In this document: piece by piece, positions 1,845 through 20,534 of the stretch
How the letters are laid out: each line of letters starts with the position of its first letter
Numbering within the stretch: position 1 is the first letter of the stretch
Position numbers and translations under genes: made by a program
DNA from: a virus
IMG/VR virus record: IMGVR_UViG_3300018080_000116
Location: 1 to 64,000 of that record
Reading direction: 5' to 3' (one strand)
Length of the DNA: 64,000 nt
Notes under the pieces: model-generated
Seen by the model: the letters and a program-made list of their open reading frames with translations, nothing else
Database searches by the model: none
What the model was told of the DNA's origin: nothing

Positions 1845-2794
1845 TATTGAACATTCCCCAGGTTTGTGTCTTTTTGGAAGATTGGGTCGGTTAATAATGC
1901 CACGAGTTGTTCGTGTTCGGGGTGATCTTTATCCACAACGTCCAGTGAACGATATTGCTCTGGCGTGAATGTTCCCCAGTTCATCAGCCGGTCGAACTGC
2001 GCTCGTGCTCCATATCGATGGCTCATCTCCACAAACTGTTTCATCTCTCGCCAGTTGTTTTGTTGTACGACCATGACGAAACACAGGTATTCTATTTTCT
2101 TTTGTGCCAACAAGTCGTATGCGAATTGAAGGTTCTCGTGCAACAGTTCCCAATCACCCCCACGATTTTTAGCGTAAGTCTCAGGCGTGGCGGCATCGAT
2201 GGAGATCTGAATCTCTGTAACCTTGTTCTTGACCTTGTGCCAATGCTTCTTGAGCAGCAAGCCATTGGTTGCCAATTTTATTTTCACATCTTTGGTGCTC
2301 AAAAATTCTATCACATCCATATAGGCAATGAATGGTTCGCCAGATCCGCAGACACTCACTACTTCCAGTTTGTCGGCGATCTGTGTTAAGATCTCTTTTT
2401 CACGAACGCATTCTCTTCTTTTATCTTTGGTGATCCTTTCAACCCTACATGCTGGACAATGAAGGTTACATGCACGGTTGGTGTCGAGATGCATGTGTTG
2501 AGGGCCCGACATTGTTAGGTAGAACGGGTCCACGATTTCATCTTTCCTGAGCATCCATGTTGTCTTGGGGAGTTGGCATAGCCGTGGGCAAGTGTCTTTG
2601 CAGAACTTGTAGGAACCATTTAGAATGGATTGACGGATTTCGTGCGCTACGGGCCCGTTCCAGATTTCCTCAATGTCGTCATCAATGGTGCCAATAGGTT
2701 TGGAGAGCCATTGGCAGTTAAACACCTTGTCTCCGATTATCACAATGTAAATGAAAGGGCTGGGGCAAAGAAATTGTGATTTGTCTACAGACAT
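1844..2794 (-). CDS. Radical SAM protein with N-terminal SPASM/twitch-like domain
   Basis: CxxxCxxC motif (RACNLHCPAC), GSGEPF, LATNGLLL, ISIDAATPETYAKNRGG; N-terminal CPSPF...WNG...CKDTCP. Confidence 0.8.
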   Translation of the reverse strand: MSVDKSQFLCPSPFIYIVIIGDKVFNCQWLSKPIGTIDDDIEEIWNGPVAHEIRQSILNGSYKFCKDTCPRLCQLPKTTWMLRKDEIVDPFYLTMSGPQHMHLDTNRACNLHCPACRVERITKDKRRECVREKEILTQIADKLEVVSVCGSGEPFIAYMDVIEFLSTKDVKIKLATNGLLLKKHWHKVKNKVTEIQISIDAATPETYAKNRGGDWELLHENLQFAYDLLAQKKIEYLCFVMVVQQNNWREMKQFVEMSHRYGARAQFDRLMNWGTFTPEQYRSLDVVDKDHPEHEQLVALLTDPIFQKDTNLGNVQ

Positions 2795-3399
2795 AGTACA
2801 TCCGCATGGGTGAGGAACAGAGCGTCGGCCATGCTTAACTCCAACAGCAATTCATACATGTATTCCCAGTTGGCCTTTTTATCATAGGGTTTTATACCGG
2901 CCATTTCATAGCTGTGTCCCCATATGGAAAATAATTGCGCTGTTCGGCTGCGATTGAATTCCCTTAGGGCCTTTAAGGCGTGGCTGTAATGACACGTCGG
3001 TTGCCAAGCGAACCTGTCTTTGGGCATATCAAAGTTCGTTGTGTTCCAAGCAACAGTACGTGCATAACGCATTCCAGACTCTTGCGCCATGTCAGCAGCC
3101 TCTTCGCTGTACTCTCCGAACGGATAGGCAAACCCCACAACGTCCTGGCCGCTCATTTGTTCCAGGCTGAATTTGTCATCACGCACTTCTTGCAGAGTTA
3201 GATCTGAGATGTGCGGGTGGTTAATTGAGTGCGATCCTATCTCATGGGCGGCATATGGCGTATAGGACGACATGTATTCATTGCCTCGTCTTCCTGAGTT
3301 TAAAAAGAACGTGGCGGGCATTCGATATGTTTTTAGCATGTCGATTAGTTGTGCGTCATGGATTGTGCCGTCGTCAAAACTCAGTGTAATTATCTTCAT
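2785..3399 (-). CDS. Polysaccharide deacetylase (CE4/NodB family)
   Basis: LSFDDG, ATFFL, HEIGSHSINHP, FAYPFG motifs. Confidence 0.85.
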   Translation of the reverse strand: MKIITLSFDDGTIHDAQLIDMLKTYRMPATFFLNSGRRGNEYMSSYTPYAAHEIGSHSINHPHISDLTLQEVRDDKFSLEQMSGQDVVGFAYPFGEYSEEAADMAQESGMRYARTVAWNTTNFDMPKDRFAWQPTCHYSHALKALREFNRSRTAQLFSIWGHSYEMAGIKPYDKKANWEYMYELLLELSMADALFLTHADVLCL

Positions 3400-4217
3400 A
3401 GGAAATGTTTGCCTCCTTCCTGGAAAGCCTGTTTGTCTATAGGTGGGAGAAAGTGGGTTCTTACCGAATCGAAGTCGATGTCATTTCCGTGAGGCATAGT
3501 GTTCACTAGGTTGTGATCGTGACACACTTTAATCCAAAATGGGCCCTCATCAATCTTGACAACTTTCCCCAGTCGTTCTATTAGATGGTGCTGTTCGCTA
3601 AGCACAGTGGTGGTTTGGTCGGGGTCAACTGGAGTGTGCAAGAAGGAAACGAAACTGTTGGTGAAATCTCGGTCGTGGATTACTCGAACGACATTGGCTT
3701 TGGGGTCTAGGCCCAGTCCCTTGTTGAAGTTTATAACGCACGGCCCCTTCCAACCCTTCCATTTCTCCTGCACGGTTTCGACGAAGTTTTTTCGGATCAT
3801 GTCGTCACTGTCCAGTCGTGTGGTGATAACGCTTGTGCCGGGGTTTTTACCAACATATTGACGCACATAAGCCAGGAAGGGGCACGGGGCGAAATTCTTA
3901 AATCTGAACAACTCTGGGTTGTCAGGAACGTGAAGCCACACCCATGCGGGCGCATCAATGAGTTCGTGCGGCACTGTTACCAGTGATTCTATTTCGTCAA
4001 TGTGTTTTTGGGGCGTATTGGGATCGACGGCTAAGAGCCAGACAAAATTCTTGGAGGTTTGGTTTTGGATGGAGGGTATTGTGTATTTCTTGAAAAACTC
4101 CATTCGAGCTTCCATCCATGTTTCAGGGTCGTTGTACGGCTCCGATAATTGGTAAAGTCGATGTGCCTCACCGTAAATTCCTTGATTGATCCTAGTTAAT
4201 ATGAAGTGTTTTTTCAT
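3396..4217 (-). CDS. Putative glycosyltransferase (rhamnosyl-transferase-like)
   Basis: HFILTRIN..., YTIPSIQNQTSKNFVWLL, TTRLDSDDMI (DxD-type motif). Confidence 0.6.
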   Translation of the reverse strand: MKKHFILTRINQGIYGEAHRLYQLSEPYNDPETWMEARMEFFKKYTIPSIQNQTSKNFVWLLAVDPNTPQKHIDEIESLVTVPHELIDAPAWVWLHVPDNPELFRFKNFAPCPFLAYVRQYVGKNPGTSVITTRLDSDDMIRKNFVETVQEKWKGWKGPCVINFNKGLGLDPKANVVRVIHDRDFTNSFVSFLHTPVDPDQTTTVLSEQHHLIERLGKVVKIDEGPFWIKVCHDHNLVNTMPHGNDIDFDSVRTHFLPPIDKQAFQEGGKHFL

Positions 4218-5182
4218 GATCCTATTCCGTGCTTCTTAGAAAGCCAGTTGAGAGTTTCATGGTTATTTAAGTGCCTGTCACGCCAAAAATAATACCTTAG
4301 ATCAGGTTCGCCCTGAATCATCCCTATTTCACGCATGTAAATTCGACTGGGGCACACATCAGTGGTGCATGTTTGTGGTGTCTTCTGCCATTGAACGTCA
4401 CCAATGGTTCCCAGGGACTCTCCATACCAGCAGCGTACCACATGGGGTGTGCGGTGGCGGTAAATCCAGCCCATGCGGCACCCTGAATCACACACACGGC
4501 CCTTAAAGGTGGTGGATGGGTCGAACAGGAATGGCCTATCCATCCCATCCAGGATGATTTCTCGCTCCTTGTCGGTGAAAGCAGCGGGGTAACTCTTTCC
4601 CTCATATGGCCCACGATAAGGAAGGATGAGCATTCTGAAGCCCGCCCTGCGAAACTCTTCTTGGCTCTTCTGCAACTGGCCCGATCTGATTCTGCGGGGG
4701 TGCGCAATGTATTTGATCGAAGTGTTGTATCCGTGGTCTCTCGTCCATTGTGCCTTGTGGAAGAACTGTTTCTTTAAGGGTGCCGTCTCTTCTGAGGGGC
4801 TGTGGTAGCTCGCACTGATGAGGACTACGTTTTCTGGTGGGATGTGTTCTAGGTATTTGGCCCAGTCGTGTATGGCGAAGTTGGTGGAGATCCCCAACCA
4901 ATGACCGTGTTCAACAAGCATGTTGGAGATTTCAAGGGTGTCTGGATATAGCATTGGCTCCCCGCCCCCACTCAGGTTTACGAATACACAGTTGGATAAA
5001 CTGTCTACGCTCTTTACGATCTCCTGTGGAGGGGCAATCTTTGTGTTGGGTAGTGGCGGCGGGGCGCTTTTGTTGAAACAATAGAAGCATTTGTAGTTGC
5101 ATATTTCGGTTGGAGAAAGGGTGAATACGTTCGCCATGGCCGTATCGAATCGTTCTTGTAATTTATCGACTAATTTAAGCAT
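4214..5182 (-). CDS. Radical SAM protein
   Basis: TEICNYKCFYC, NLSGGGEPMLYP, ISTNF and a C-terminal Cys cluster. Start placed at ATG 5182; the track's longer start overlaps the divergent gene. Confidence 0.78.
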   Translation of the reverse strand: MLKLVDKLQERFDTAMANVFTLSPTEICNYKCFYCFNKSAPPPLPNTKIAPPQEIVKSVDSLSNCVFVNLSGGGEPMLYPDTLEISNMLVEHGHWLGISTNFAIHDWAKYLEHIPPENVVLISASYHSPSEETAPLKKQFFHKAQWTRDHGYNTSIKYIAHPRRIRSGQLQKSQEEFRRAGFRMLILPYRGPYEGKSYPAAFTDKEREIILDGMDRPFLFDPSTTFKGRVCDSGCRMGWIYRHRTPHVVRCWYGESLGTIGDVQWQKTPQTCTTDVCPSRIYMREIGMIQGEPDLRYYFWRDRHLNNHETLNWLSKKHGIGS

Positions 5183-5884
5183 ATGCTTCATCCTAAACGT
5201 ATCACTGCTAACATGGCCACATTCCCCCAGAGAAGAAAATATCTGGAGGACGTAGTAAACACTTTGTTGCCTCAGGTGCAAATTCTAAGAATCTACCTTA
5301 ACGGTTATCAAGAAGTGCCCGAGTTTCTTCAACACCCTAAGGTAGAAACGTTTATCGGCGATGATATTGGAGATGCGGGCAAGTTTTTCTGGTTGGGTTG
5401 TGGGCATGAAGTGTACTTCTCTGTGGATGATGATTTTTATTATCCACCCACATATGTTCGAGACCACTTGCAAACACTCCAATTTTATCGCAATAGGGTC
5501 ATTGTGACGCTTCATGGCTGCCTGCTCAAGTTCCCCGTAGAACGATACTATCGTGATCGTGCGGAAATCTATGGGTGGTACGAGTCTGCGCCATCTAAGT
5601 TTGTTCATGTTGGCGGCACAGGGGTGATGGCTTTTGATACAGAAGCTTTCCCCCTTCAATTCATAGATGTGCCCTCAAAAAACATGGCGGATATTTGGGT
5701 GGCGTTGAAAGCACAAAAACTGCAAATGCCGATTCTGGTAAGAGAGCACCAAGCGGACTATTTGACCTTGATTGATGAACCTGCGGGCGAGAGTATTTGG
5801 AACCGGCAGCAAGATGACCCTCGTCCAGCCTATGTAATCAATAGCGTCCCAGAATGGAAGTTGCATGTTGAAGAACACGCCTGA
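5183..5884 (+). CDS. GT-A fold glycosyltransferase
   Basis: ITANMATFPQR, YFSVDDDFYYPPTY (DDD motif), GGTGVMAF, MADIW. Confidence 0.65.
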   Translation: MLHPKRITANMATFPQRRKYLEDVVNTLLPQVQILRIYLNGYQEVPEFLQHPKVETFIGDDIGDAGKFFWLGCGHEVYFSVDDDFYYPPTYVRDHLQTLQFYRNRVIVTLHGCLLKFPVERYYRDRAEIYGWYESAPSKFVHVGGTGVMAFDTEAFPLQFIDVPSKNMADIWVALKAQKLQMPILVREHQADYLTLIDEPAGESIWNRQQDDPRPAYVINSVPEWKLHVEEHA

Positions 5885-6515
5885 GCTAATTAAGGTTTAT
5901 TCGCACCCCAGATCGGGTACACATATGATGATGAATCTTCTGGGTCGCAACTTCTACCCCACCAGGGATCTTTCATGGCTAGAAACGGAGTGGGGACATT
6001 GGTCTGACAGGCACAAGGATAAAATCCGCAACCCCTATGCACGTCTATTTGGTAGCCATGATTTTGTAGATGAGGTTCAATATGCCGGGCCCAAGGTTTA
6101 CGTTTATCGAGATGGTCGTGCCGTTGCTTTGTCTGTTTGGAAGTTCCTGGGCTCCGAGCAGCCCTTTCCTAAGTTCTTGAGGACGAAATTGGATTGGAGT
6201 GGCACGCCGGGTCGGCGTGCCACTCCCACCAAGACGATAGCCGAACATTGGTACGATCATGTTTCGGGTTGGCTTAATAAGATGCCGCCACGAACCGTAT
6301 TTGTGCGATATGAAGATTTGCTTGCCGATCCAGCTACGCAACTACAAAGGGTGTCTTATGAGTTCAATTTACACATTTCCAAGCACGTTGATGTAGATGA
6401 GCGAGTTGGCATTCTTCCTGGGGACGACCCATTCGTTTGGAAAAAACAATTTACTACTGCCGACTTAGACTACTTTCACACAGTTGTTCCCGAAGACAGC
6501 TACTATCTTTTATGA
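5865..6515 (+). CDS. PAPS-dependent sulfotransferase
   Basis: 5'-PSB loop SHPRSGTH, 3'-PB motif YVYRDGRAVALS, VRYEDLL. Confidence 0.8.
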   Translation: MLKNTPELIKVYSHPRSGTHMMMNLLGRNFYPTRDLSWLETEWGHWSDRHKDKIRNPYARLFGSHDFVDEVQYAGPKVYVYRDGRAVALSVWKFLGSEQPFPKFLRTKLDWSGTPGRRATPTKTIAEHWYDHVSGWLNKMPPRTVFVRYEDLLADPATQLQRVSYEFNLHISKHVDVDERVGILPGDDPFVWKKQFTTADLDYFHTVVPEDSYYLL

Positions 6516-6545
6516 TGGGGAGGATATATACCTTCAGGACTTATT

Positions 6546-7136
6546 ATGGAGGTGACGAACATGGCAGACGACTGGTTGAAAGAACTAGAACAACAGCTAG
6601 AGACCGAGTGCGGCACTTTACCGCCGAAGAAGAAAAGGCCCACTCCGGTTAGGCCAAACCTCGTCTTGAACCCACCTCAGAAGCAATCGAGCGGCCCTTG
6701 GCCCGCAGTATTTTTTGTGTTTTTGTTGGGCCTTGTTATTGTGGTTGGTGGCCTTTGGTTGTGGCAAGGTAACGACCTATTTGCCCTCAAGAAACAACCC
6801 GACAAGCAAGAACAGTTCCAACAGCCCGAGAGAGAACCATGGGAAGAGCCGTGGCGCATGATGTCAGCAGATGTTCAAGCTACCAGTGAAGAGGTAGAAG
6901 CACTTAAAGAGGAACATGACAGAACCAGAGAAAGAATGGATTGGATTGGTTCTCGTTTGGCATTGCTCGGAGCCCTTCATAGCAATAACTTCATTGAGGC
7001 GAAAAAGAAGGGACTGACCAACGCCGAGTTTCTTCTGCCTGATAGGCATTGGCAAATTGATCGTTTGCCCGATAATCTGAAGATGACGGATGAAGACAGA
7101 GAACGATTGGGTCGCTTTGTGAAAACAGAAGAGTAG
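6546..7136 (+). CDS. Hypothetical single-pass membrane protein with coiled coil
   Basis: One hydrophobic segment (AVFFVFLLGLVIVVGGLWLW) followed by a coiled coil; the start may instead be ATG 6561 (GGAGG upstream). Confidence 0.6.
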   Translation: MEVTNMADDWLKELEQQLETECGTLPPKKKRPTPVRPNLVLNPPQKQSSGPWPAVFFVFLLGLVIVVGGLWLWQGNDLFALKKQPDKQEQFQQPEREPWEEPWRMMSADVQATSEEVEALKEEHDRTRERMDWIGSRLALLGALHSNNFIEAKKKGLTNAEFLLPDRHWQIDRLPDNLKMTDEDRERLGRFVKTEE

Positions 7137-7811
7137 TTAAGGGGCATTGCCCAATGCTATTAAATCCATAATCGGTTTGGATAAGGCGAAAGCAGTAGCC
7201 CTAGCGGTAGATTTCTTGTGTCGCAAAGCACGGACGATCTCAAGTTGCATGCTTTGTACGCTTGGATCGGTGTATGCTGTCCATCTGCGGAAAAGCTGAT
7301 TGAGGTTATTTTTTCCACGGCCAGCATATTTGCTGTCTACTCCTTCATATACCTGCAATCCCGTTTGGAGCATGAAAGCCACCAAAGCATCTCGACGCCA
7401 CTCTTCACAACTGAAGGAGGAAAATTCAGATCCTTTTCCCGCACCGATAATTACGTCAAGATCTGGTATGCTTTGTCGAATGTGATTTCCGACTCCATGG
7501 ATGATGAAGACATAGGAATACAGGGCGCTGCGTCTTATTTGCAGGGTGTATCTTAAAAGTGGATCGAGAAATTCGTCCTTCACTACATCTTCCAAAAGGT
7601 GGGGGACGCTGTTGCAGTTTGCCAGATCGTTGAGCCAATCAACGTATGTTGCTTTTCTCCACCCCCGGTTAATCACGGCATAGCCGTCGATGTAGGTCGC
7701 AAGGGCTTCTGCCACCACAGCCGTATTGGTGTCGTCATGTCCATGAGGGGCGGCAATGATTACGGGAGTTGTGCCTTCAATCGTGCTTACTCGTTCCACC
7801 CAGTTCTCCAA
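7137..7811 (-). CDS. N-formylglutamate amidohydrolase-like Zn hydrolase
   Basis: PVIIAAPHG near the N-terminus, FIIHG, SMQLEI. The true start may be GTG 7799, which has GGAG upstream. Confidence 0.5.
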   Translation of the reverse strand: MENWVERVSTIEGTTPVIIAAPHGHDDTNTAVVAEALATYIDGYAVINRGWRKATYVDWLNDLANCNSVPHLLEDVVKDEFLDPLLRYTLQIRRSALYSYVFIIHGVGNHIRQSIPDLDVIIGAGKGSEFSSFSCEEWRRDALVAFMLQTGLQVYEGVDSKYAGRGKNNLNQLFRRWTAYTDPSVQSMQLEIVRALRHKKSTARATAFALSKPIMDLIALGNAP

Positions 7812-8328
7812 TCAAGTCTTCTTTTGATAAACCGAGTTCGTCTAACATTGCGTTAGTTATGTCGGCTACGCCTCGTAATTGTTGCTCTTTCGATTTCTTT
7901 CTGAGTCTATACAACAAAATGTTTGATCTTCCCAAGTTGGCTTGATCGCTAATGATGCGTAGGTTGCTTATTGCATAATGCCCTTTGGGATCTACTCGAT
8001 CTACTGATGGTGTGATTCCAGGGTTTTCTTTCAGGAATTTAGTCACACGTGGCAGTGCCCATTCTTTGAATTCTTTTGGAGAAACTTGTATTTCAACATT
8101 GTCATACCAGAAGCTATGTCCAACCCTATGTCGCATGCGGGCCCACATTCGATTTACAATGCCCTTGGGTGTTTTATTGTATCTTTGATTTGCCTCTTTT
8201 TGCGATTGGCTCCTATTGCGCTTCTTCCTACAAGTTTTACAAGTGCCATCCAACCCATCTGGTTGACATCTGTCTTTGTAAAATTCTGATTTTGGTTTGT
8301 CGGTTTTGCATTTGCTGCATGTTTTCAT
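7777..8328 (-). CDS. HNH-like homing endonuclease
   Basis: N-terminal KTCSKCKTDKPKSEFYKD...CKTC zinc ribbon and C-terminal PSVDRVDPKGHYAISNLRII, typical of phage His-Me endonucleases; GGAGG RBS. Confidence 0.68.
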   Translation of the reverse strand: MKTCSKCKTDKPKSEFYKDRCQPDGLDGTCKTCRKKRNRSQSQKEANQRYNKTPKGIVNRMWARMRHRVGHSFWYDNVEIQVSPKEFKEWALPRVTKFLKENPGITPSVDRVDPKGHYAISNLRIISDQANLGRSNILLYRLRKKSKEQQLRGVADITNAMLDELGLSKEDLIGELGGTSKHD

Positions 8329-8338
8329 TCGGCCTCCA

Positions 8339-8446
8339 GGATGTATCCTGCGGATATATCCTAAAGCAGTAAAATAGGGCCAAAAATTCGCTAGGATCGA
8401 TCCTACGGATGTATCCCAGCGTTATATATCCTAGCTCGATATATCC
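8339..8446. repeat. Cluster of six GGAT-NN-ATCC-type boxes
   Basis: Exact boxes at 8339, 8352, 8394 and 8407; degenerate boxes at 8422 (TTATATATCC) and 8437 (CGATATATCC). Confidence 0.7.
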
Positions 8447-9477
8447 TGGTCCAAGACAATTGTGCTATTGGGTTTTGTGCCAAGACCGAGCCATTGTTTG
8501 TGTAGGACGATAGGTCCACAGCCATCGAATTCTTCAGGTGTGTAATCGTCACAGGCGTCATTATCCAACCCCAAGGCCCTTTTTGTTTCTTGGACTAGAA
8601 CCTTTTCTAAATTACCGTAGTATCTATATCGGTAGTTGGCCTCGAAATAAGCCTTCATCTTGGGCTTGTTGTTCGATCTCATGTTCTTTTGTGCATTGTT
8701 GGGCAACAGGTGTTTGACGTTCTCGGAAAGATCGAAATAATGAATCGGGTGGTGTCTCAACCACACTCCGAGGGATTTTGTGGTGGTTGCTCCCGCCACG
8801 TGGAGGGGGCCTGAATCTATCCCGATAAAGAGCGCCGACTTCTGAATAAGGGCGGCAATTGTGCTGGCATCACCCGTCCCCGTGTTGCCCCATATCTTTT
8901 CTTTCTTACCAGGGCGAAAGATGGTCTTTGTGTTGGGCAGTGTGCTACGGCCATCCCAGTCCATAACGATGACAACATAACCCGCAGCGATTACGCTGCG
9001 GGTTACTGCTTTGGTTATGTGTTCGGGAATGTTTTTTCTGGAGCTAGATGTGTTGCCCTGATAGTGAATGGACACGAATCCTTTCTTCTGAGGCAGCTTC
9101 TCAAGGTATTCTTGCGCCAGTATGTTGGATTCCCTGGGAATAGGGACGGAGTATGTGTAGAGTTCAGGATCGGGTTCTAATCCAAGCTCTTGGACGAGGG
9201 ACTTGGTGACTTTTGTGGCTGGGCAATCAAAGCGGATTGTGGTATCGGGGTCGTGCCACCAAAGGTTGTACACCTTGTCATACGCTTTGGCATTTACCTT
9301 GTCTCGTTTTGTTCTATATGAGGCATTGCACAAACCATGAAAGCAAGAGTGCTTGCCCACTAGGCTCTCCACATCAACAAGCCAATTTTTTCGCTGTTGT
9401 TGTATGTGCTTGAGAACAATGGTGAGTTGGACGGCATCACCCAGACCGTGCCTGAAACGGATGAGGACTTTTTTCAT
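8431..9477 (-). CDS. Glycosyltransferase family 9 (heptosyltransferase-like)
   Basis: IRFRHGLGDAV and AALIQKSALFIGIDSGPLHVAGA. Confidence 0.8.
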   Translation of the reverse strand: MKKVLIRFRHGLGDAVQLTIVLKHIQQQRKNWLVDVESLVGKHSCFHGLCNASYRTKRDKVNAKAYDKVYNLWWHDPDTTIRFDCPATKVTKSLVQELGLEPDPELYTYSVPIPRESNILAQEYLEKLPQKKGFVSIHYQGNTSSSRKNIPEHITKAVTRSVIAAGYVVIVMDWDGRSTLPNTKTIFRPGKKEKIWGNTGTGDASTIAALIQKSALFIGIDSGPLHVAGATTTKSLGVWLRHHPIHYFDLSENVKHLLPNNAQKNMRSNNKPKMKAYFEANYRYRYYGNLEKVLVQETKRALGLDNDACDDYTPEEFDGCGPIVLHKQWLGLGTKPNSTIVLDQDISS

Positions 9478-9497
9478 GGAGGTATCTATTATAGAGC

Positions 9498-10463
9498 ATG
9501 AAGATCTTAGTAACAGGCGGTGCGGGCTTTATCGGCAGTCACCTCGTCGATTGGCTTATTAACGACGGCCATCAGGTCGTGGTGTGGGACAATCTGAGCA
9601 CCGGGAAGAAAGAGAACGTAAACCCACGAGCAGAATTTCACCAATACGACGTAGCACACCAGCTACAAGTAGATTTGGATTTTGAGGTCATCTTTCACAT
9701 GGCAGCGTTGGCTCGAATCCAGCCCAGTTTCGATCACCCCTTCACCACCCACGATGTCAATGTGACGGGCACTGTTAATATGCTGGAGAAGGCACGGTTG
9801 TGTGGAGCACGCTTCGTGTATCCAGGCTCTAGTTCATTCTATCACAACCCTCACGCAAACCCGTACACCTGCACCAAATGGATCGGTGAAGAATACTGCA
9901 AGATGTACCATGAAGTGTTCGGTGTGCCGGTCGCCATTGCACGGTTCTTTAACGTCTACGGTCCTCGGCAGATTGAAGAGGGTGCCTATGCAACAGTTAT
10001 CGGCATCTTTGAGAAGCAGATGCGGGAGGGCAAACCACTCACGATTACCTGGGCGGGCAAGCAACGCCGGGATTTCACTCACGTCAGTGACATCGTGTCC
10101 GCATTGATCCTAATGGGCCAAAAAGATTTGTGCGGAGAGATTTTCAACCTCGGCACAAATGTTAATTTTTCAATTAACGAAGTCGCTGGGATTTTTAAAC
10201 TAAATGCTGGGATTTTTGAAGAGGCTGGGATTTTTGACGTGTCTCCCCACGACCTATATCTCATGCTCAAGGAGTCGAGTGAAGTTGTATATCTCCCCCG
10301 CCGCCCCGGCGAGGCCATCAACACGCTCGCCGATATAAAATTTACAACGGAAAAACTAGGGTGGAAGCCACGAGTCAGCCTGCGAGATTACATTGCCAGG
10401 GTAGTCCGAGAAATGGAGCCCGACCCGCCGCAGATGGGCCTGTTTTTGAGGTCGAAAACCTGA
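9498..10463 (+). CDS. NAD-dependent NDP-sugar epimerase/dehydratase (GalE-like)
   Basis: ILVTGGAGFIGSHL, YxxxK (YTCTK), ARFFNVYGPRQ, RRDFTHVSD. Confidence 0.9.
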   Translation: MKILVTGGAGFIGSHLVDWLINDGHQVVVWDNLSTGKKENVNPRAEFHQYDVAHQLQVDLDFEVIFHMAALARIQPSFDHPFTTHDVNVTGTVNMLEKARLCGARFVYPGSSSFYHNPHANPYTCTKWIGEEYCKMYHEVFGVPVAIARFFNVYGPRQIEEGAYATVIGIFEKQMREGKPLTITWAGKQRRDFTHVSDIVSALILMGQKDLCGEIFNLGTNVNFSINEVAGIFKLNAGIFEEAGIFDVSPHDLYLMLKESSEVVYLPRRPGEAINTLADIKFTTEKLGWKPRVSLRDYIARVVREMEPDPPQMGLFLRSKT

Positions 10464-13749: not shown

Positions 13750-14283
13750 ATGAACGAATACTCTCCCCTCGTGTTGTGGGATGCAGCCAAGAACCCGGAC
13801 GCCGACGAGCCCGACCTGCTTGTTTCTGATGAAACTCAAGCGATTACTGTTATGCGAAACAAGCGGCAGGGCGCTTACATTCCCCGCTGGCTTTATGAGG
13901 AACCGGTTTTCTTGCGACTATGGTCGTTACTGCCCTATCGTATGGACCACGAGCCGTTTTGGGACAAGCAGTACGAGCTAATTGCGAAGGCCACCCCCTG
14001 GCCGATTAAGACCGTCAAGTGCTGCGGTCGTAAGCTGCCTCGATACATTCAGGTCGGCTCGAATTTTATGATCTACTGCGAGGTTTGCGGCTGGCATGTT
14101 TCTACTTTCACCGGCAGCAAGGAAGATATTGTCGAGCGGTGGGAGCAAAGCCTTGCACCACAACCCCATTTGGTGGAACGAGACTGGCGATCCGCTATGA
14201 TGCGGTTCCGCAAGATCAGCGAGCAATCGTCCAGTGTCACCGAGGCAGCGATCCGCTCCAATAGTCGGATCACTGTGGGTTAG
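13750..14283 (+). CDS. Hypothetical zinc-binding protein
   Basis: CCG...CEVCG; fits the gene tiling. Confidence 0.55.
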   Translation: MNEYSPLVLWDAAKNPDADEPDLLVSDETQAITVMRNKRQGAYIPRWLYEEPVFLRLWSLLPYRMDHEPFWDKQYELIAKATPWPIKTVKCCGRKLPRYIQVGSNFMIYCEVCGWHVSTFTGSKEDIVERWEQSLAPQPHLVERDWRSAMMRFRKISEQSSSVTEAAIRSNSRITVG

Positions 14284-14323
14284 CCCCCCCTTTGGAGGGG
14301 GATTGGGAATTTTAAAATTCTCA

Positions 14324-14354
14324 ACCGAACCTTTTGCCTGCTCGTGTGTATAAG
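14324..14354 (+). promoter_or_regulatory. Class II promoter
   Basis: ACCGAACCTTTTGCCTGCTCGTGTGTATAAG with AATTTTAAAATT upstream and a GCCGGGT/ACCCGGC hairpin downstream. Confidence 0.75.
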
Positions 14355-14415
14355 TGTGTGAGCCGGGTGAGACCCGGCAGGCCGGATCAGTTTCTTTCAG
14401 CAGGAAAGCAGGAAA

Positions 14416-15522
14416 ATGGCCAACTACTCCCGAAACCGTGGCCGTCGTCGCTACCCCGACCGTCAGACCGTCACCGTCAAGGTCGGCGACCTCGAAATTC
14501 CCGGCTGCGTGGTTTTCGCCTCGCAGTACCCTGGCTTTGATCCCGTTGCCAAAAAGCGGATCAAGCCCGGCGACATGATCGCCTACAAAAAGCAGACCAA
14601 CCTGACGGCGCAGCAGAAAAAGGCCCTCTGGCCGAACGGCAAGACCTACAACCTGACGGTTCTCTGGCCGCAACAGCAAGTCGCCAACGGCAATGGCGGC
14701 AAGCCCAAATTCCCGCCTTCGGAGTACCAGCAGGCGATCCGCACGACCCTCTTCGAGAGCGAAGACCATATCGTCATGCGTGCCCTCGCTGGCTCTGGCA
14801 AGACCGCTACGCTTGTGTGGCTGGTCTACGAACTGCAAGATGCAGGCCAGTTGGCAGGCAAGCAGGTGCTCTACATGGCCTTCGGCAAGCGAGATCAGAT
14901 GGACCTCGCCGACCGGCTGGCTGGCACCGGTGTCACCGTCAAGACGACGCACAGCTTCGGCTTCGGCATCCTCAAGGGCGTTCTGGGCGACCAGATGAAG
15001 CCCCGCAAGTCCAAGCAGCAGTATGGCGATATGTTCATCCGCCTGTTGTGCGACAAGGCCGACCTGGACTACTCGGCGAAGAACTTCAAGAAAGTTCGCA
15101 AGACCCAAGAGCACACGCTGCGTGGCGGCGTGTGCGAGTTGGTGAGTTACATCAAGAATTGGGCGCACTTCCCCGAACGGACCAAGGATGGGTGGGCGTT
15201 CACCGAGGAACAGAAGGATGCCATCCGCCAGTACATCGGCATGTACGAGATCGAGCGGCCCGAGGAATGGAAGGGCACCACCGAAGAGTGGGAAGACCTG
15301 CTCGTGGAATTCGCCTGCGAGATCACCTGCTTGTCGATCCCGGTTCCCGGTCAGCAATTGGTCGAGATCGCTTTCGACGACATGCTCTACCTGCCGTTGG
15401 CCCTGGGCCTCGAAATGCCCTACTTCGACTTGCTGTTCACCGACGAATCGCAGGACTTCAATGCCTGCCAAGTGCTCCTGTTGGAGCGGCTGCAAGCCGT
15501 GAAGCCTCCGAAGGGAAAATAA
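14416..15522 (+). CDS. UvrD/PcrA-like SF1A helicase, N-terminal half (motifs Q, I, Ia, Ib, II)
   Basis: SEYQQAI, ALAGSGKT, LYMAFGK, TTHSFG, LFTDESQDFN; stops 20 codons after the Walker B. Confidence 0.85.
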   Translation: MANYSRNRGRRRYPDRQTVTVKVGDLEIPGCVVFASQYPGFDPVAKKRIKPGDMIAYKKQTNLTAQQKKALWPNGKTYNLTVLWPQQQVANGNGGKPKFPPSEYQQAIRTTLFESEDHIVMRALAGSGKTATLVWLVYELQDAGQLAGKQVLYMAFGKRDQMDLADRLAGTGVTVKTTHSFGFGILKGVLGDQMKPRKSKQQYGDMFIRLLCDKADLDYSAKNFKKVRKTQEHTLRGGVCELVSYIKNWAHFPERTKDGWAFTEEQKDAIRQYIGMYEIERPEEWKGTTEEWEDLLVEFACEITCLSIPVPGQQLVEIAFDDMLYLPLALGLEMPYFDLLFTDESQDFNACQVLLLERLQAVKPPKGK

Positions 15523-15536
15523 ATTTGGAAACAGAT

Positions 15537-15564
15537 GAACCTTTCGCCCCGAGTTGTGTATAAG
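15537..15564 (+). promoter_or_regulatory. Class II promoter between the two helicase halves
   Basis: GAACCTTTCGCCCCGAGTTGTGTATAAG with AAAATAAATTT upstream and an AAGGAA RBS before ATG 15607. Confidence 0.75.
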
Positions 15565-15606
15565 GGGGCGGAAGGTTTTCATCACCCCAAACTCAAGGAA
15601 CTTGAA

Positions 15607-16896
15607 ATGCCTCGTGTCATTTGTGTCGGCGATCCTCAGCAGTCTCTTTACCGCTTTCGTGGTGCCGACTGTCACGCCTTCGAGCGGATCATCGAAATGC
15701 TCGAACGGAATGGTCGCCCCGTCACCGAGCGGCAACTGCCGATCAACTACCGTTGCGACCGGCTTGTCATCCAGCGTGGTCGCAAGTGGGTGCCCGAACT
15801 TCAAGGCAACTCCGATGCCCTGGGCACCGTGGATATTTGCACGTTCGCCGAGGCGCTTCAGCGAGTCAACAACGACGGCGTGGACATCGCTCTGCCGGAT
15901 GGCGTCGAGAGTGCCCGCCGCAGCCTCCCCCTGCCCGGCAAAGACCCGGTGTCTTTCGCCTTCCTCTGCCGCACCAACAAGGAACTGGTTGTCACCGCTT
16001 ACCAACTGACGGCGATGGCCAAGCGGTGCTGCATCCTCGGTCGTGAGTCGTTCGGCGAGCCCTTGAAGCAACTTGTGGCCCAACTGACGCACAACAAGGT
16101 GGACGAGAGGGGCCGGATTATCGAAGATACCGAGCACGAAGACTACACCAACCGGATCAGTGACAAGCGAGACCCGGAAGGCAACATCGTCGAGGAAGGT
16201 CTGTTGACCCGGCTGGCCAACTACCGCCGAGTCCAGTCCGCCAAGCTGGCTGACGAAGGCTACGAGAACAAGCTGGAAGTGCTTGTGCAAAACTGCGAGT
16301 GCCTGGAAGTTGTCGCCACCCACGTGGCCGACGATAAGGTCACCAGCGTTTTGGCCGAACTGAACAAGTTGTTCACCGATGAACCGGCCCCCGGCGTCAT
16401 TGTCCTGTCTACGGTTCACCGTGCGAAGGGCGGCGAGTGGGACGTGGTGTTCATCCTTCGCCCCGACCTTCTGCCCTTCCCCACGGCAAAGCCGAACGCT
16501 GACGGCACCGTGAGCGATGAACAGCAGCAGGAATTCAACGCCTGCTACGTGGCTGCGACCCGTGCCCGTCATCGTTTGTACTACGTCGAGAACTGGCCGT
16601 TCGGCAACATGGCTCAACGGTCGTTGCAGTTCGATGCCGAAGACATCCTTGCCATCACGCAGTATCCGGACGTTGACCCGGAAGAGTACCTCACCGATCC
16701 CGTTGCGACTCAGTACACCGAGGCAAAGCACGCCCCGGCTGAATTGAACGATGCGGCAGTCACCGAGCCGTTGCCCTACGACAAAGAGGAAGAGCCCCAC
16801 GAACGTGGTGGCATCACCAAGCGACAGTTCGGCAAGATGCTGGACGGCATGAAGGGGGAGCACGGCCCGGTTGTCGATGATGGAGAGCCGTTTTAA
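15607..16896 (+). CDS. UvrD/PcrA-like SF1A helicase, C-terminal half (motifs III-VI)
   Basis: VGDPQQSLYRFRGAD, LPINYRC, LCRTNKEL, LSTVHRAKGGEWDVV, YVAATRAR. Confidence 0.85.
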   Translation: MPRVICVGDPQQSLYRFRGADCHAFERIIEMLERNGRPVTERQLPINYRCDRLVIQRGRKWVPELQGNSDALGTVDICTFAEALQRVNNDGVDIALPDGVESARRSLPLPGKDPVSFAFLCRTNKELVVTAYQLTAMAKRCCILGRESFGEPLKQLVAQLTHNKVDERGRIIEDTEHEDYTNRISDKRDPEGNIVEEGLLTRLANYRRVQSAKLADEGYENKLEVLVQNCECLEVVATHVADDKVTSVLAELNKLFTDEPAPGVIVLSTVHRAKGGEWDVVFILRPDLLPFPTAKPNADGTVSDEQQQEFNACYVAATRARHRLYYVENWPFGNMAQRSLQFDAEDILAITQYPDVDPEEYLTDPVATQYTEAKHAPAELNDAAVTEPLPYDKEEEPHERGGITKRQFGKMLDGMKGEHGPVVDDGEPF

Positions 16897-16929
16897 CCGA
16901 ACCATCGACCTTTTGTGTGTGTCTACAAT
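16897..16929 (+). promoter_or_regulatory. Hybrid promoter-like element (class II upstream box, class I -10)
   Basis: CCGAACCATCGACCTTTTGTGTGTGTCTACAAT, ending 34 nt before the parB ATG. Confidence 0.45.
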
Positions 16930-16963
16930 CCAACGTACCCGTTTTGACCAAAGGGAGAACCCA

Positions 16964-17875
16964 ATGTCCGACAAGTCCATCCATCGCATCCACCTTCGTG
17001 ACATCACCGTCACCCACAACCCCCGCACACCGGCCCGTGGCCTCGCCCGTGGTCTGGTCGAAGAGGGCATCGAGTGCTCGCCGATTGCTCTTGTGCATGA
17101 TCTGGCTTTGAGCGATAATGCCGCCGAGCGTGCCGAATTCTGCCGCCTCGTCGAAGCCTACGAGAGCGGCCCGAAGGGTTTGGTTGAACTGGCAGCATCC
17201 CGCAGGAAGCAAGAATTGCAGCCGATCAGTCTCCGAAGTTTCCGGTCGCAAGTGGCCGGAACCGATCCGGTCGAGTACGTCCAGCGTTACGGCGTCGTCA
17301 TGGGTGAGCGCCGTTATCTGGCCGCTGCGTACAACTACGCCAAGCACGGCGGTGCCTGCGACATCGGTGCCACGTTCTTGCGAGTCACCACCGATGAAGC
17401 CTACGATCTTGCCGTCGCCGAGAACCTGCAACGGCAGGACATGACCGACGTGGAGATTGGCCACGTGTTCCGAGAATACTACGACGATGGCATGACCATC
17501 CGGCAGGTCGCCGAGCACCTGAACCAGGACTACCAGTTTGTGCGTGGTCGTCTCGGCCTCACCTACCTGGAAGAGAAGGAACAGCAGGCCGTCGAAGACG
17601 GTCGCCTGGGCGTCACCAAGGCCATCGAGAAGGGCTTGAAGGTCAAGAGCGGCAAGTCCAACGGCGACGAAGAGATCGACCCCAAGGCCGACGAGCGGCG
17701 TCGTGTGGCCACGTTGAAGGCCGTCGAGGCGGAATTCGACGTAACACCCCGCAACCGCAAGGGCTACTTGCAGGGTCTCGCCTGGGTCATGGGTATCGAC
17801 TACGATACCGCTCTGGAAGAGAGCGAAGTCCGCATCGCCGAGGCGATGGAGAGAGAAGCCAAGAAAGCGGCCTGA
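16964..17875 (+). CDS. parB: ParB/Spo0J-family CTPase with HTH
   Basis: IHLRDITVTHNPR, LQPISL, VVMGERRYLAA (GxxRxxA), AVAENLQRQDM, TIRQVAEHLNQ helix-turn-helix; GGGAG RBS before ATG 16964. Confidence 0.82.
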   Translation: MSDKSIHRIHLRDITVTHNPRTPARGLARGLVEEGIECSPIALVHDLALSDNAAERAEFCRLVEAYESGPKGLVELAASRRKQELQPISLRSFRSQVAGTDPVEYVQRYGVVMGERRYLAAAYNYAKHGGACDIGATFLRVTTDEAYDLAVAENLQRQDMTDVEIGHVFREYYDDGMTIRQVAEHLNQDYQFVRGRLGLTYLEEKEQQAVEDGRLGVTKAIEKGLKVKSGKSNGDEEIDPKADERRRVATLKAVEAEFDVTPRNRKGYLQGLAWVMGIDYDTALEESEVRIAEAMEREAKKAA

Positions 17876-17956: not shown

Positions 17957-19174
17957 ATGTCGGTTTACCAGGGACAAGAATACTACACGCTGCCGTACTC
18001 TCCGATGGACCCCGAACGCACCGAGGCAACGTCTTCGATCATGCGTAGGGGCAACGAAGAGATCAAGCGGTTGCACAAAGCGTTGCGCAAGGCCAACAAG
18101 TTGGGGCCGAATCAGTACATTCGTGCTGAATTCCGCCAGGAGTTGTTCGACTGGCTGGCTTCCATGAACGGTCAGGTGTCCAGACGTATAGACCCCAAGG
18201 GCAGGGTGGGCCGTCCGTCGAAAAAGCCGCTTTTGTTTGTGCCGAGTGTGACCAAAAACCCCCGTTGCGGTTTTGTCTTTGACGACGAAGGCAAGCGGAA
18301 GAAAGCGCCGAAGCCGAGGGGTGTCAGAATCTCGAATCGAGCCCTCTCCCGCATTGTTGCCGTCCGCAACATTCAAGATGAAGTGCTCTGTGGTTTCAGT
18401 CGGCTGTTTGAGCGGCTGGCCATTCGGTTCTGGTCAAACCACAAGGAACAGACGCTTGGAGTCCAAGACTATTACGATGAAGCTGTGATGGCAGGCATCA
18501 ACGCCATCTATCATTACACCAGGGAAGACGTGGAGTTTATCACCTACCTGTACCACTGCGTTCGTAGGCGCATGGGCACGGCCACGGTGAAAGACAATCC
18601 GTTGAGTCCCTGGTCGAATGATGCTCGTCGTCTTCATCGGATGTACGAGGATGCCAGGGCATCCATGAACCGGCCCACGACGTTTGCCGAAGTGTGTGAA
18701 TACTGCCAGTTCACCGACGCTGAGGCCCGGTTGGTGGAATTGACCTTGGCCGAAGTGGTTCAGGCGTGGGACTTCGCTGGTGGGGGTGAGAGTCGCCATC
18801 AGGCGGTGGAAGCCTACGAGGAAAATCACGTGCGAACCAACGGTCGTCAAAACAACTGCAATGGCCTGTACCGAAGCGGCCTTCACCTGGGCAACTTCCA
18901 TGATGGCGAGGAAGAGTTGCGGTTGGACATCGACCAAAGGGCGGCTGTAGAGCGTGCTCGTGCGAAGATGACCGAATTCGAGCGTGCTGTACTTGACGCC
19001 TACTTGAACGATGGCGAGTGGGGCTGGCAGTCCCGTGTAGCCGAGCAACATATCAACCCGAAAACCGAATTGCCATATAGCCGCCGAGCACCTGCGGTTT
19101 TGTGGCCCCGGATTGTGCGAACGATCCTGGAAGAGTATCAGGGCGAAGAAATCGACGCCGTGAAAGTTGCGTGA
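17957..19174 (+). CDS. Divergent sigma70-family RNA polymerase sigma factor
   Basis: Region 2-like QDYYDEAVMAGINAIYHYTREDVEFITYLYHCVRRRM; region 3-like RRLHRMYEDARASMNRPTTFAEVCEYCQFT; region 4-like AKMTEFERAVLDAYL...QSRVAE; about 140 aa of unassigned N-terminal extension. Confidence 0.72.
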   Translation: MSVYQGQEYYTLPYSPMDPERTEATSSIMRRGNEEIKRLHKALRKANKLGPNQYIRAEFRQELFDWLASMNGQVSRRIDPKGRVGRPSKKPLLFVPSVTKNPRCGFVFDDEGKRKKAPKPRGVRISNRALSRIVAVRNIQDEVLCGFSRLFERLAIRFWSNHKEQTLGVQDYYDEAVMAGINAIYHYTREDVEFITYLYHCVRRRMGTATVKDNPLSPWSNDARRLHRMYEDARASMNRPTTFAEVCEYCQFTDAEARLVELTLAEVVQAWDFAGGGESRHQAVEAYEENHVRTNGRQNNCNGLYRSGLHLGNFHDGEEELRLDIDQRAAVERARAKMTEFERAVLDAYLNDGEWGWQSRVAEQHINPKTELPYSRRAPAVLWPRIVRTILEEYQGEEIDAVKVA

Positions 19175-19253: not shown

Positions 19254-20534
19254 ATGGTACGCAAGAAACAACCGCATCCGAGCCTGCTTGGTACGCCCCA
19301 GTACGAGCGCACGTTCGATCATAGCGGCCTCACTGATGAAGACCGGCGATGGATCACCGATTCACGTAACCCGAAGTGCCCGTTGTCCAAGTTCATTGGC
19401 AATGAGAAGGCGCTGCGGCGTCTGTCTCGTGCTGCGTATGCGGCGTGGGGAGAGCCGAACCACGAGTGCAGCGATCAATCCTTTGCCCTGGTCGGCCCGT
19501 CTTCGACTGGTAAGACGACGCTGGCGAGACTGTTCGGAGATACGGTGCTTCTGCCGTTTGTGGAAGTCCACCCGAAGGCCGTAAAAGGTCCGAAGAACAT
19601 TTTGGAAGAAATCCAACTTGTTCTTGAGAAGATCAAAGTGTTCAGCAGAAGCCTGGGTAAGGAAATCACCCTACAGCTTGTGCCCAACATCGACAACCAC
19701 TTCGTCATTCCGCCGCTGGTGCTGTTCATCGACGAGGTTCATGCGTTGCCGAAGCAGACTGTGCAAAGCCTGCTCAAGGCCATTGAACCGAAGGATGGAA
19801 AGCTGGCCACCGAGGAAGGGTGGAGTGCCGACTGCCGGAACATTTGTTGGGTGATTGCCACCACGGATCGTGGTCTGTTGTTCGATGCGTTCGACACTCG
19901 GTTCCGCAAGGTCTACTTGAATCTCTACACCCGTGAAGAGATCGCCGAGATCGTTCAGTTGAACAACAAAGACTGGCCGATGTCGGTGTGCCGTATCGTG
20001 GCAAAGTATTGCTGGCGTGTTCCTCGTGAGGCTTTGGCCTTTGCCAAAGACATGCGGACGGAATATGAAATCCAGTCTAAGCGTGGTCGTGTGGATTGGG
20101 AACAGGTGGCAGCCGCCGTGGCGCAAGACAGTGACATTGATCCGTTGGGCATGACGCTCCAGCGCTTGCGCATCCTGGTGGCCTTGGGTCAGCAGGGAGC
20201 GATCCCGAGGGACCGTTTGTGCCACTATGCTCAGTGTAAGGTGGAAGAACTAACCAAATTCCTGATGCCGCCGCTGATTACCGCTACGTCGAATGAACCG
20301 GCATTGGTGGCCGTGACCAGCAAGGGATACTCGATCACCAGGGCTGGCTTGGAACAACTCGATGCTCGTGGCATCCCGCATCCTCCGGAAGAGAAGGTGG
20401 TTGTCATGGACATTCCGCCTTTGGATTGGGGCCAGTACGACCCCGTGGACATGGGCTATGGTGGCTCCACTGGTCGAGGCAACGCCAAGGTGGTGAAGCC
20501 GAAGCTGTGGCTGCCGTTCGGTGACAAGAAATAA
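19254..20534 (+). CDS. ruvB: RuvB-like AAA+ ATPase (Holliday junction branch-migration motor family)
   Basis: LSKFIGNEK, GPSSTGKTTLA, LFIDEVH, IATT, DTRF, LNLYTREEIAEIV, DPLGM..., and a winged-helix C-terminus (TSKGYSIT), collinear with RuvB. Confidence 0.75.
   Translation: MVRKKQPHPSLLGTPQYERTFDHSGLTDEDRRWITDSRNPKCPLSKFIGNEKALRRLSRAAYAAWGEPNHECSDQSFALVGPSSTGKTTLARLFGDTVLLPFVEVHPKAVKGPKNILEEIQLVLEKIKVFSRSLGKEITLQLVPNIDNHFVIPPLVLFIDEVHALPKQTVQSLLKAIEPKDGKLATEEGWSADCRNICWVIATTDRGLLFDAFDTRFRKVYLNLYTREEIAEIVQLNNKDWPMSVCRIVAKYCWRVPREALAFAKDMRTEYEIQSKRGRVDWEQVAAAVAQDSDIDPLGMTLQRLRILVALGQQGAIPRDRLCHYAQCKVEELTKFLMPPLITATSNEPALVAVTSKGYSITRAGLEQLDARGIPHPPEEKVVVMDIPPLDWGQYDPVDMGYGGSTGRGNAKVVKPKLWLPFGDKK

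Follow-up and report, generated by a model that had tools for sequence, protein, structure and literature searches.

The window analysed here is a stretch of 64,000 nucleotides (nt) of viral DNA, positions 1 to 64,000 of the IMG/VR virus record IMGVR_UViG_3300018080_000116, which is 138 kb long and 27% complete according to CheckV. At positions 14416–16896 of the window, two consecutive genes on one strand encode, in two parts, a UvrD-like helicase of superfamily 1 (SF1), with the break falling between helicase motifs II and III. We refer to the two genes as the N-half and the C-half and consider them to encode the probable subunits of a single enzyme. The locus is laid out as follows:

14416–15522, + strand: helicase N-half gene, 368 amino acids (aa), with a TAA stop at 15520–15522; an N-terminal domain of ~95 aa is followed by the Q motif, motifs I, Ia, Ib and II, and the next helix
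15523–15606, + strand: untranslated spacer between the halves, 84 nt (87 nt including the stop), absent from single-gene relatives in alignment A1
15607–16896, + strand: helicase C-half gene, 429 aa, with its ATG at 15607; it contains the last core strand of domain 1A, motif III, motifs IV–VI and the acidic tail DDGEPF

The N-half ends in ...DESQDFNACQVLLLERLQAVKPPKGK-TAA (over a longer stretch, ...TDESQDFNACQVLLLERLQAVKPPKGK-TAA), and the C-half opens from its ATG with MPRVICVGDPQQSLYRFRGAD... The starts at 14416 and 15607 share one frame, and the TAA at 15520 is the sole stop across 14416–16896, so that rendering it as X yields a single frame of 826 residues. An earlier sequence-only reading of this DNA had given these coordinates, the shared frame and the sole TAA, and all were confirmed from the sequence and its open reading frames (ORFs).

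We assessed membership of the SF1A class, the UvrD/Rep/PcrA-like helicases, through the Pfam families PF00580 and PF13361/PF13538. The N-half matches positions 11–236 of PF00580 (UvrD-helicase; E 4.9e-11), and the C-half takes up the same family at positions 242–266 and additionally matches UvrD_C (E 9.4e-11) and UvrD_C_2 (E 2e-12). Likewise, on one PHROG helicase profile of 776 positions, the N-half occupies 148–386 and the C-half 392–668; jointly the two cover this one profile end to end, which supports a single helicase in two pieces. The Q, I, Ia, Ib, II, III, IV, V and VI motifs are all intact across the two halves, with AGSGKT (motif I, Walker A) and DESQDF (motif II) in the N-half, and VGDPQQSLYRFRGAD (motif III), INYRC, TVHRAKGGEWD and YVAATRARHRLY in the C-half. 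Motif Ia has the unusual form MAFGKRDQ, which cannot be put down to decay because the whole sub-clade has it. From its residue 3 onward, the C-half aligns to Deinococcus radiodurans UvrD (4c2t) from residue 249 onward, NLLVVGDPDQSIYKFRGAD. Domain and structure alignments thus place the cut in a loop of RecA-like domain 1A, after the helix that follows motif II and before the strand leading to motif III. By its membership of the SF1A class, the enzyme is predicted to unwind DNA in the 3'-5' direction and to have DNA-dependent ATPase activity.

Compared with UvrD, PcrA and Rep (PDB 4c2t, 1pjr), the domains and motifs I–VI are alike; however, those enzymes are single polypeptides, whereas the helicase described here is two, and its phage family, at only ~25% identity to characterised phage UvrD-like helicases, adds the ~95-aa N-terminal domain and the acidic DDGEPF tail. 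The N-terminal domain (window 14416–14700) precedes the helicase core in all relatives, has the consensus ...GVxVxxMKVMxSxYxGxCxxTGxxFxxGTxIAFKH..., and is without a Pfam or PHROG match. At the other end of the protein, the tail ...(F/V)DDGEPF (window 16876–16893) closes every family member, split or fused, in alignments A1 and A3. Bacterial SSB and T7 gp4/gp2.5 have similar C-terminal tips, and the tail, which is carried by the C-half, probably serves to dock a replisome partner.

Sequence searches recovered both split and uninterrupted members of this family. A search with the N-half returned stand-alone N-halves in 22 clusters (334–386 aa, 36–70% identity), all of which stop 2–14 residues past the sequence DESQDFNxCQxxLLExL. 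At least seven stand-alone C-halves begin 1–3 residues before the motif III strand, and the start pattern M-x(1-2)-R-[IVA]-[IV]-x-VGD is found in the window, in loci L019 and L020, and in the proteins P0189, P0190, P0193 and P0197; for these four proteins, recovered by an exhaustive HMMER search, the match begins at residue 1–4 of the C-half query. A search with the read-through sequence retrieved ~22 single-ORF relatives (688–891 aa, 35–51% identity), which cross the junction as ...LLLERLsk-tGA-RivVVGDxxQ... and are without the ~33 extra codons of the window. The motor core is therefore not carried on one polypeptide at this locus, given the TAA at 15520 and the separate start at 15607, and more than 20 relatives are alike in this respect.

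A tblastn search against cultured phages returned only distant single-gene relatives, at ~25% identity. The helicase relatives sit on contigs of 231–436 kb, and the family is one of very large uncultured phages. A scan of viral contigs with the C-half alone gave no match; the scan with alignment A1 led to L002. About half of this phage helicase family has the split, which appears to be inherited. Both halves could be read at four loci, and at all four they stand in the order N-half then C-half on one strand:

window: N-half 14416–15522, C-half 15607–16896, + strand; spacer of 84 nt with a promoter-like motif, a hairpin and a Shine–Dalgarno (SD) sequence; halves in the same frame
L019: N-half ends at 235, C-half starts at 310; 72% identity to the window; spacer of 74 nt; halves in frames 2 and 1
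L002, a 436-kb viral contig: N-half 1189–2412, C-half 3962 to 5251; 47% identity; spacer of ~1.5 kb
L020: N-half 907–2007, C-half 4016–5152; 51% identity; spacer of ~2 kb with three ORFs

In the split state, purifying selection acts on both halves. Comparison of the window with L019 gives, for the C-half, a nonsynonymous rate (dN) of 0.150 and a synonymous rate (dS) of 0.731 (dN/dS 0.20; 340 core codons), and for the N-half a dN of 0.115 and a dS of 0.754 (dN/dS 0.15; the 75 codons available). Branch lengths point the same way: the median root-to-tip distance of the split N-halves (2.12) is not longer than that of the fused forms (2.67). Assemblies made independently and drawn from JGI, ENA, Logan and IMG/VR also contain the split, at identities as low as 36%. 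The sequence-only reading had proposed a functional helicase in two pieces rather than a decaying gene, and this part of it stands: more than 20 diverged relatives retain the split, with 22 N-halves and at least seven C-halves sharing the cut; the ratios of 0.15–0.20 on both halves give no sign of neutral decay; and the uninterrupted relatives, about which it had asked whether they carry the insert, lack it in all of the ~22 cases.

The spacer carries its own set of expression signals. A motif of the form AACCTTTnGCC-N5-GTGTGTATAAG (also written AACCTTTnGCC..GTGTATAAG) has six copies in the window when up to three mismatches are allowed, all on the + strand, against 0.01 expected. Each copy also shows a looser pattern consisting of an A/T-rich block, GAACCTTT, ~12 nt and TGTGTATAAG, followed by an SD sequence and start codon 40–75 nt downstream of the motif. 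Because the same layout recurs at each copy, the description of this unit as a cassette holds as a sequence pattern. Around the helicase genes, the following elements were located:

14328–14354, + strand: promoter-like motif before the N-half, an exact match to AACCTTT-N12-TGTGTATAAG with an A/T block upstream
15534–15583, + strand: strong hairpin (−33.1 kcal/mol, z −4.0) whose loop contains the −10-like element; TTTTC follows the hairpin
15538–15564, + strand: internal promoter-like motif in the spacer, of the same class as the copy at 14328 and kept in the L019 spacer
15595–15600, + strand: SD sequence AAGGAA, 6 nt before the ATG at 15607 and also kept in L019

The C-half thus has a promoter-like motif (15538) and an SD sequence of its own, as had been claimed from the sequence. 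The hairpin has a counterpart in L019 (L019:241–287; −31.2 kcal/mol, z −3.3), and in both the window and L019 the spacer copy of the motif is embedded in a 12–17-bp hairpin, unlike the other promoter copies tested. Although very stable, the spacer hairpin was not called as an intrinsic terminator by a consensus terminator scan. For the N-half transcript it may provide a 3' stem-loop or a weak terminator, and it could serve twice, as a promoter in the DNA and as the 3' stem-loop of the upstream transcript. The same promoter class stands before both halves, which suggests co-expression, and the two halves would then be made together.

We conclude that the two genes most probably encode a non-covalent, two-subunit, UvrD-like SF1 helicase of a very large uncultured phage, and we put the probability of this reading at roughly 0.85. 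The gene architecture, its conservation and the selection acting on both halves are direct observations; from them we infer the assembly and activity of the halves. The two polypeptides would be translated separately and would associate non-covalently, with the first strand of the C-half slotting into the β-sheet of the N-half and thereby rebuilding one ATPase/translocase core, as modelling suggests. The gap between the genes holds different content by lineage: here a promoter-like motif, a hairpin and an SD sequence, and elsewhere 1.5–2 kb of guest genes.

A structural model of the complex is consistent with such an assembly. The pair's score was 0.84, whereas the three controls reached 0.29 at best; this pass may reflect the model's memory of single-chain SF1 helicases, which are common among solved structures. 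A score of this height was attained by 58 of 80 solved complexes and by 2 of 110 mismatched pairs, a yardstick that is only rough given that the alignments were our own. Across model runs, at least 64% of the contacts agree and the partner has a predicted local distance difference test score (pLDDT) of at least 79. In the model, residues 1–13 of the C-half (RVICVGD plus motif III) lie between N-half strand 117–121, which precedes the Walker A loop, and strand 338–341, which precedes motif II; C-half residues 37–50 (motif IV) pack beside residues 1–13. With C-half residues set between N-half strands in this way, the domain 1A sheet would be built from both chains. We read the model as indicating that the halves fit a known fold, a likeness rather than proof of binding.

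Several points weigh against this interpretation. The spacer and the partner gene are seen together in four loci only, and elsewhere the pairing of the halves is assumed. A cut inside the RecA-fold sheet demands that the two chains co-fold, as they plausibly would. On the side of expression, the promoter motif is a consensus match and hence a putative promoter, and no sigma-70-type promoter was called in 14000–17200.

Among the alternatives, the one that survives best is that the halves also act apart, with free or excess C-half regulating or poisoning host UvrD/Rep, or with the ratio of the halves serving as a switch; we regard it as improbable. The internal promoter-like motif ahead of the C-half would allow it, as would the hairpin and U-run after the N-half, which could lower readthrough. 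The layout in L002 can be read in the same way: between its halves (L002:2412–3962), a GC-rich terminator hairpin follows the N-half, and the C-half is preceded by a perfect TTGACA-17-TATAAT, a sigma-70-type promoter; this interval also holds an acidic-repeat ORF and a DUF3846 ORF. Against this, both halves in the window have the same promoter class, suggesting the same timing, and in L020 the first guest ORF begins 4 nt past the N-half stop, as in a tight operon. Moreover, the C-half is without Walker A, the motif II residues and one face of the domain 1A sheet, which makes a stable fold of the free C-half doubtful. The stoichiometry switch and the dominant-negative C-half put forward in the sequence-only reading find no support, the shared promoter class pointing instead to co-expression.

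A second alternative, which we consider very unlikely, is that the halves are joined in translation, either by readthrough of the TAA or by a ribosomal hop from the AAA at 15517 to the AAA at 15529, giving one helicase of 822–826 aa with a loop insert of ~30 residues. For a translational bypass, the take-off and landing codons have to match, and the product is still a single polypeptide. The window itself is compatible with this, as the halves are in one frame, the TAA is the sole stop, and an AAA stands just before the stop with another 9 nt after it. The relatives are not. In L019, the closest of them, the halves are in frames 2 and 1 across a 74-nt spacer, so the shared frame of the window, which has a one-in-three chance of arising anyway, is best taken as coincidence; and in L002 and L020 the halves are 1.5–2 kb apart with other genes between. 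Furthermore, the C-half has its own SD sequence, its ATG stands exactly where the stand-alone C-halves of relatives begin, and the residues of the insert are missing from every single-gene relative. The relatives thus show neither the conserved frame nor the short gap that programmed bypass or readthrough entails. Since the halves do not keep the same relative frame even in the closest relative and can lie as much as 2 kb apart, readthrough or hopping cannot be the expression mode of the family, and we set aside this part of the sequence-only reading, where it had figured as a lesser option.

Other routes by which the gene could be rejoined were also considered. A self-splicing intron in the gap was rejected, group I and II models included, as no Rfam match of any kind was found in window 14200–17000 at E up to 1, nor in L002, L019 or L020 at the gathering score. 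A split intein was likewise rejected: the N-half ends 10 residues past the motif II helix, the C-half starts 2 residues before its strand, no intein fragment flanks the break, and neither half has an intein Pfam hit; in the absence of flanking intein fragments, the halves cannot be ligated by trans-splicing. A homing endonuclease was rejected for the four spacers read, using Pfam and PHROGs: the window and L019 spacers are without an ORF, and the spacer ORFs of L002 and L020 gave no HNH, GIY-YIG or LAGLIDADG hit. Finally, that the helicase was recently inactivated by an insertion, or that 15520 is an assembly or sequencing error, leaving the halves as decaying remnants, is hardly credible: insert-free single-gene relatives do exist, as this would require, but all motifs are intact, the branches are without acceleration, the halves of two split genomes are held at the low dN/dS given above, and the same split in independent assemblies (L019, P0122–P0125), found across all four sequence collections and down to 36% identity, makes an error at 15520 implausible.

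With the two-subunit helicase as the preferred reading, we turned to the origin of the split using a quick maximum-likelihood tree of the N-region (56 rows). In this tree, the window N-half falls in a well-supported clade of six split forms. Parsimony on the same tree requires five changes between split and fused states, of which at least two are forced by well-supported branches; at the same time, an approximately unbiased (AU) test did not reject a topology with all split forms in one clade (p 0.388). The split may have arisen once, long ago, and been reversed by later re-fusions, or the same site may have been hit several times. The sequence-only reading had attributed the split to insertion of the promoter cassette, which these data do not support: the split is older than the lineage, and the spacers of L002 and L020 differ. 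The cassette is common to the window and L019 and is found in neither L002 nor L020, and is therefore to be regarded as the spacer content of one sub-clade and not as a demonstrated cause.

Full inteins occur in motif III (GDENQ|C...HN|CIYRFRGAD) in the relatives P0011, P0014 and P0178, ~10 residues from the cut, and the motif III region is a repeated target of mobile elements. We tentatively suggest, without holding it to be likely, that the motif II–III loop is a long-lived landing pad that was cut perhaps once, the gap later becoming a slot for cassettes and guests. Guests in this slot would be flanked by the two halves of a replication enzyme that the phage needs, and would for that reason be co-transcribed with it and hard to lose.

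One of the guest ORFs of L020 (L020:2310–3458, 382 aa) gave no Pfam match up to an E-value of 5, and the ESM Atlas clusters nearest to it are AcrVA2-like anti-CRISPR families (score 0.97, though with a low recognition of 1403). As a weak lead, it may be an AcrVA2-like candidate, in which case the gap can hold anti-defence cargo.

Beyond the family itself, five distant phage UvrD-like proteins of 299–318 aa (P0144, P0147, P0153, P0155 and P0156) end just past motif IV (...SVSYRC...AQRYL). These proteins may mark another natural split, in a different helicase family, or may simply stop at contig ends.

The genomic context of the helicase is partly conserved, with a ParB-like gene following it in the window, L002 and L019. 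Downstream in the window, we annotated:

16964–17875: ParB-like gene (phrog_3264, E 7e-9)
17957–19174: sigma-factor-like gene, a weak match (phrog_351, E 4e-4), two genes downstream of the helicase
19254–20534: clamp-loader-like gene (phrog_5846, E 9e-15)

Judging from these profile matches, the ParB-like, sigma-like and clamp-loader-like genes together make up a replication/transcription module. Elsewhere in the window, positions 2000–10000 have 47% G+C, against 53–59% in the remainder, and this region may be foreign or differently expressed.

Among known systems, the closest parallels come from enzymes of T4-related phages described as genes in pieces. In Aeromonas phage Aeh1, as related in two later accounts, nrdA is split into NrdA-a and NrdA-b by mobE and is still active (Friedrich et al. 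2007, in PMC2988022, PMC2677866). Going by these accounts, NrdA and the helicase share a cut in a functionally critical region of an enzyme gene that is uninterrupted in relatives, giving two polypeptides that have to reassemble; in Aeh1, however, the insert is the homing endonuclease mobE in one phage, whereas for the helicase no such gene was found in the four spacers and the split spans dozens of diverged lineages. The helicase accordingly shares two features of genes in pieces, namely uninterrupted relatives (~22 single ORFs) and two intact pieces under selection, and departs from them in the third, a homing endonuclease gene in the gap, which was not found in any of the four spacers.

For the DNA polymerase gene 43, split into 43A and 43B, the pieces are separated by a short intercistronic untranslated sequence in Aeromonas phage 44RR and, at the corresponding place, by a seg endonuclease gene in Aeromonas phage 25, and the phage 25 products co-purify and are active (PMC2988022). 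This range of spacers mirrors that of the helicase, which runs from 74–84 nt of untranslated sequence to kilobases with genes. The helicase differs in belonging to another enzyme family, in having more, and more diverged, split lineages, and in the promoter-like motif of its spacer. In T4, the topoisomerase genes 39 and 60 are associated with mobA (PMC2988022). The bypass of T4 gene 60 resembles the present case in that a gene for a DNA enzyme is broken near a stop by a short untranslated gap; in the helicase, however, L019 has its halves in different frames, and the gap extends to 2 kb in relatives.

A further comparison is with the "fractured genes", phage-type replication genes that are broken at conserved sites into two ORFs and accompanied by split inteins and a free-standing endonuclease (Dassa et al. 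2009, PMC2677866); the eight enzyme types that this paper lists as fractured include no UvrD-type helicase. In contrast to these, no intein fragments lie at the helicase break, although the relatives P0011 and P0014 have full inteins nearby. A review of jumbo phages covers split RNA polymerase and Pol III alpha subunits and no split helicase, and we found no paper on a split SF1/UvrD phage helicase in the open-access literature.

For annotation, these findings mean that half-genes of this kind should receive the names of subunits of a single helicase rather than being called truncated genes or pseudogenes. Naturally split enzymes reveal where folds tolerate breaks and how the pieces find each other, and an SF1 helicase cut through its ATPase β-sheet, kept across dozens of diverged phages, offers a system for the study of motor assembly and of communication between the pieces. 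Should the landing-pad proposal be true, the split enzyme gene would be both a cargo-holding locus and a natural model for the assembly of a two-chain SF1 motor. With this family, a helicase joins ribonucleotide reductase, DNA polymerase and topoisomerase on the short list of genes in pieces, and a gene split can be ancient and widespread rather than an oddity of one phage.

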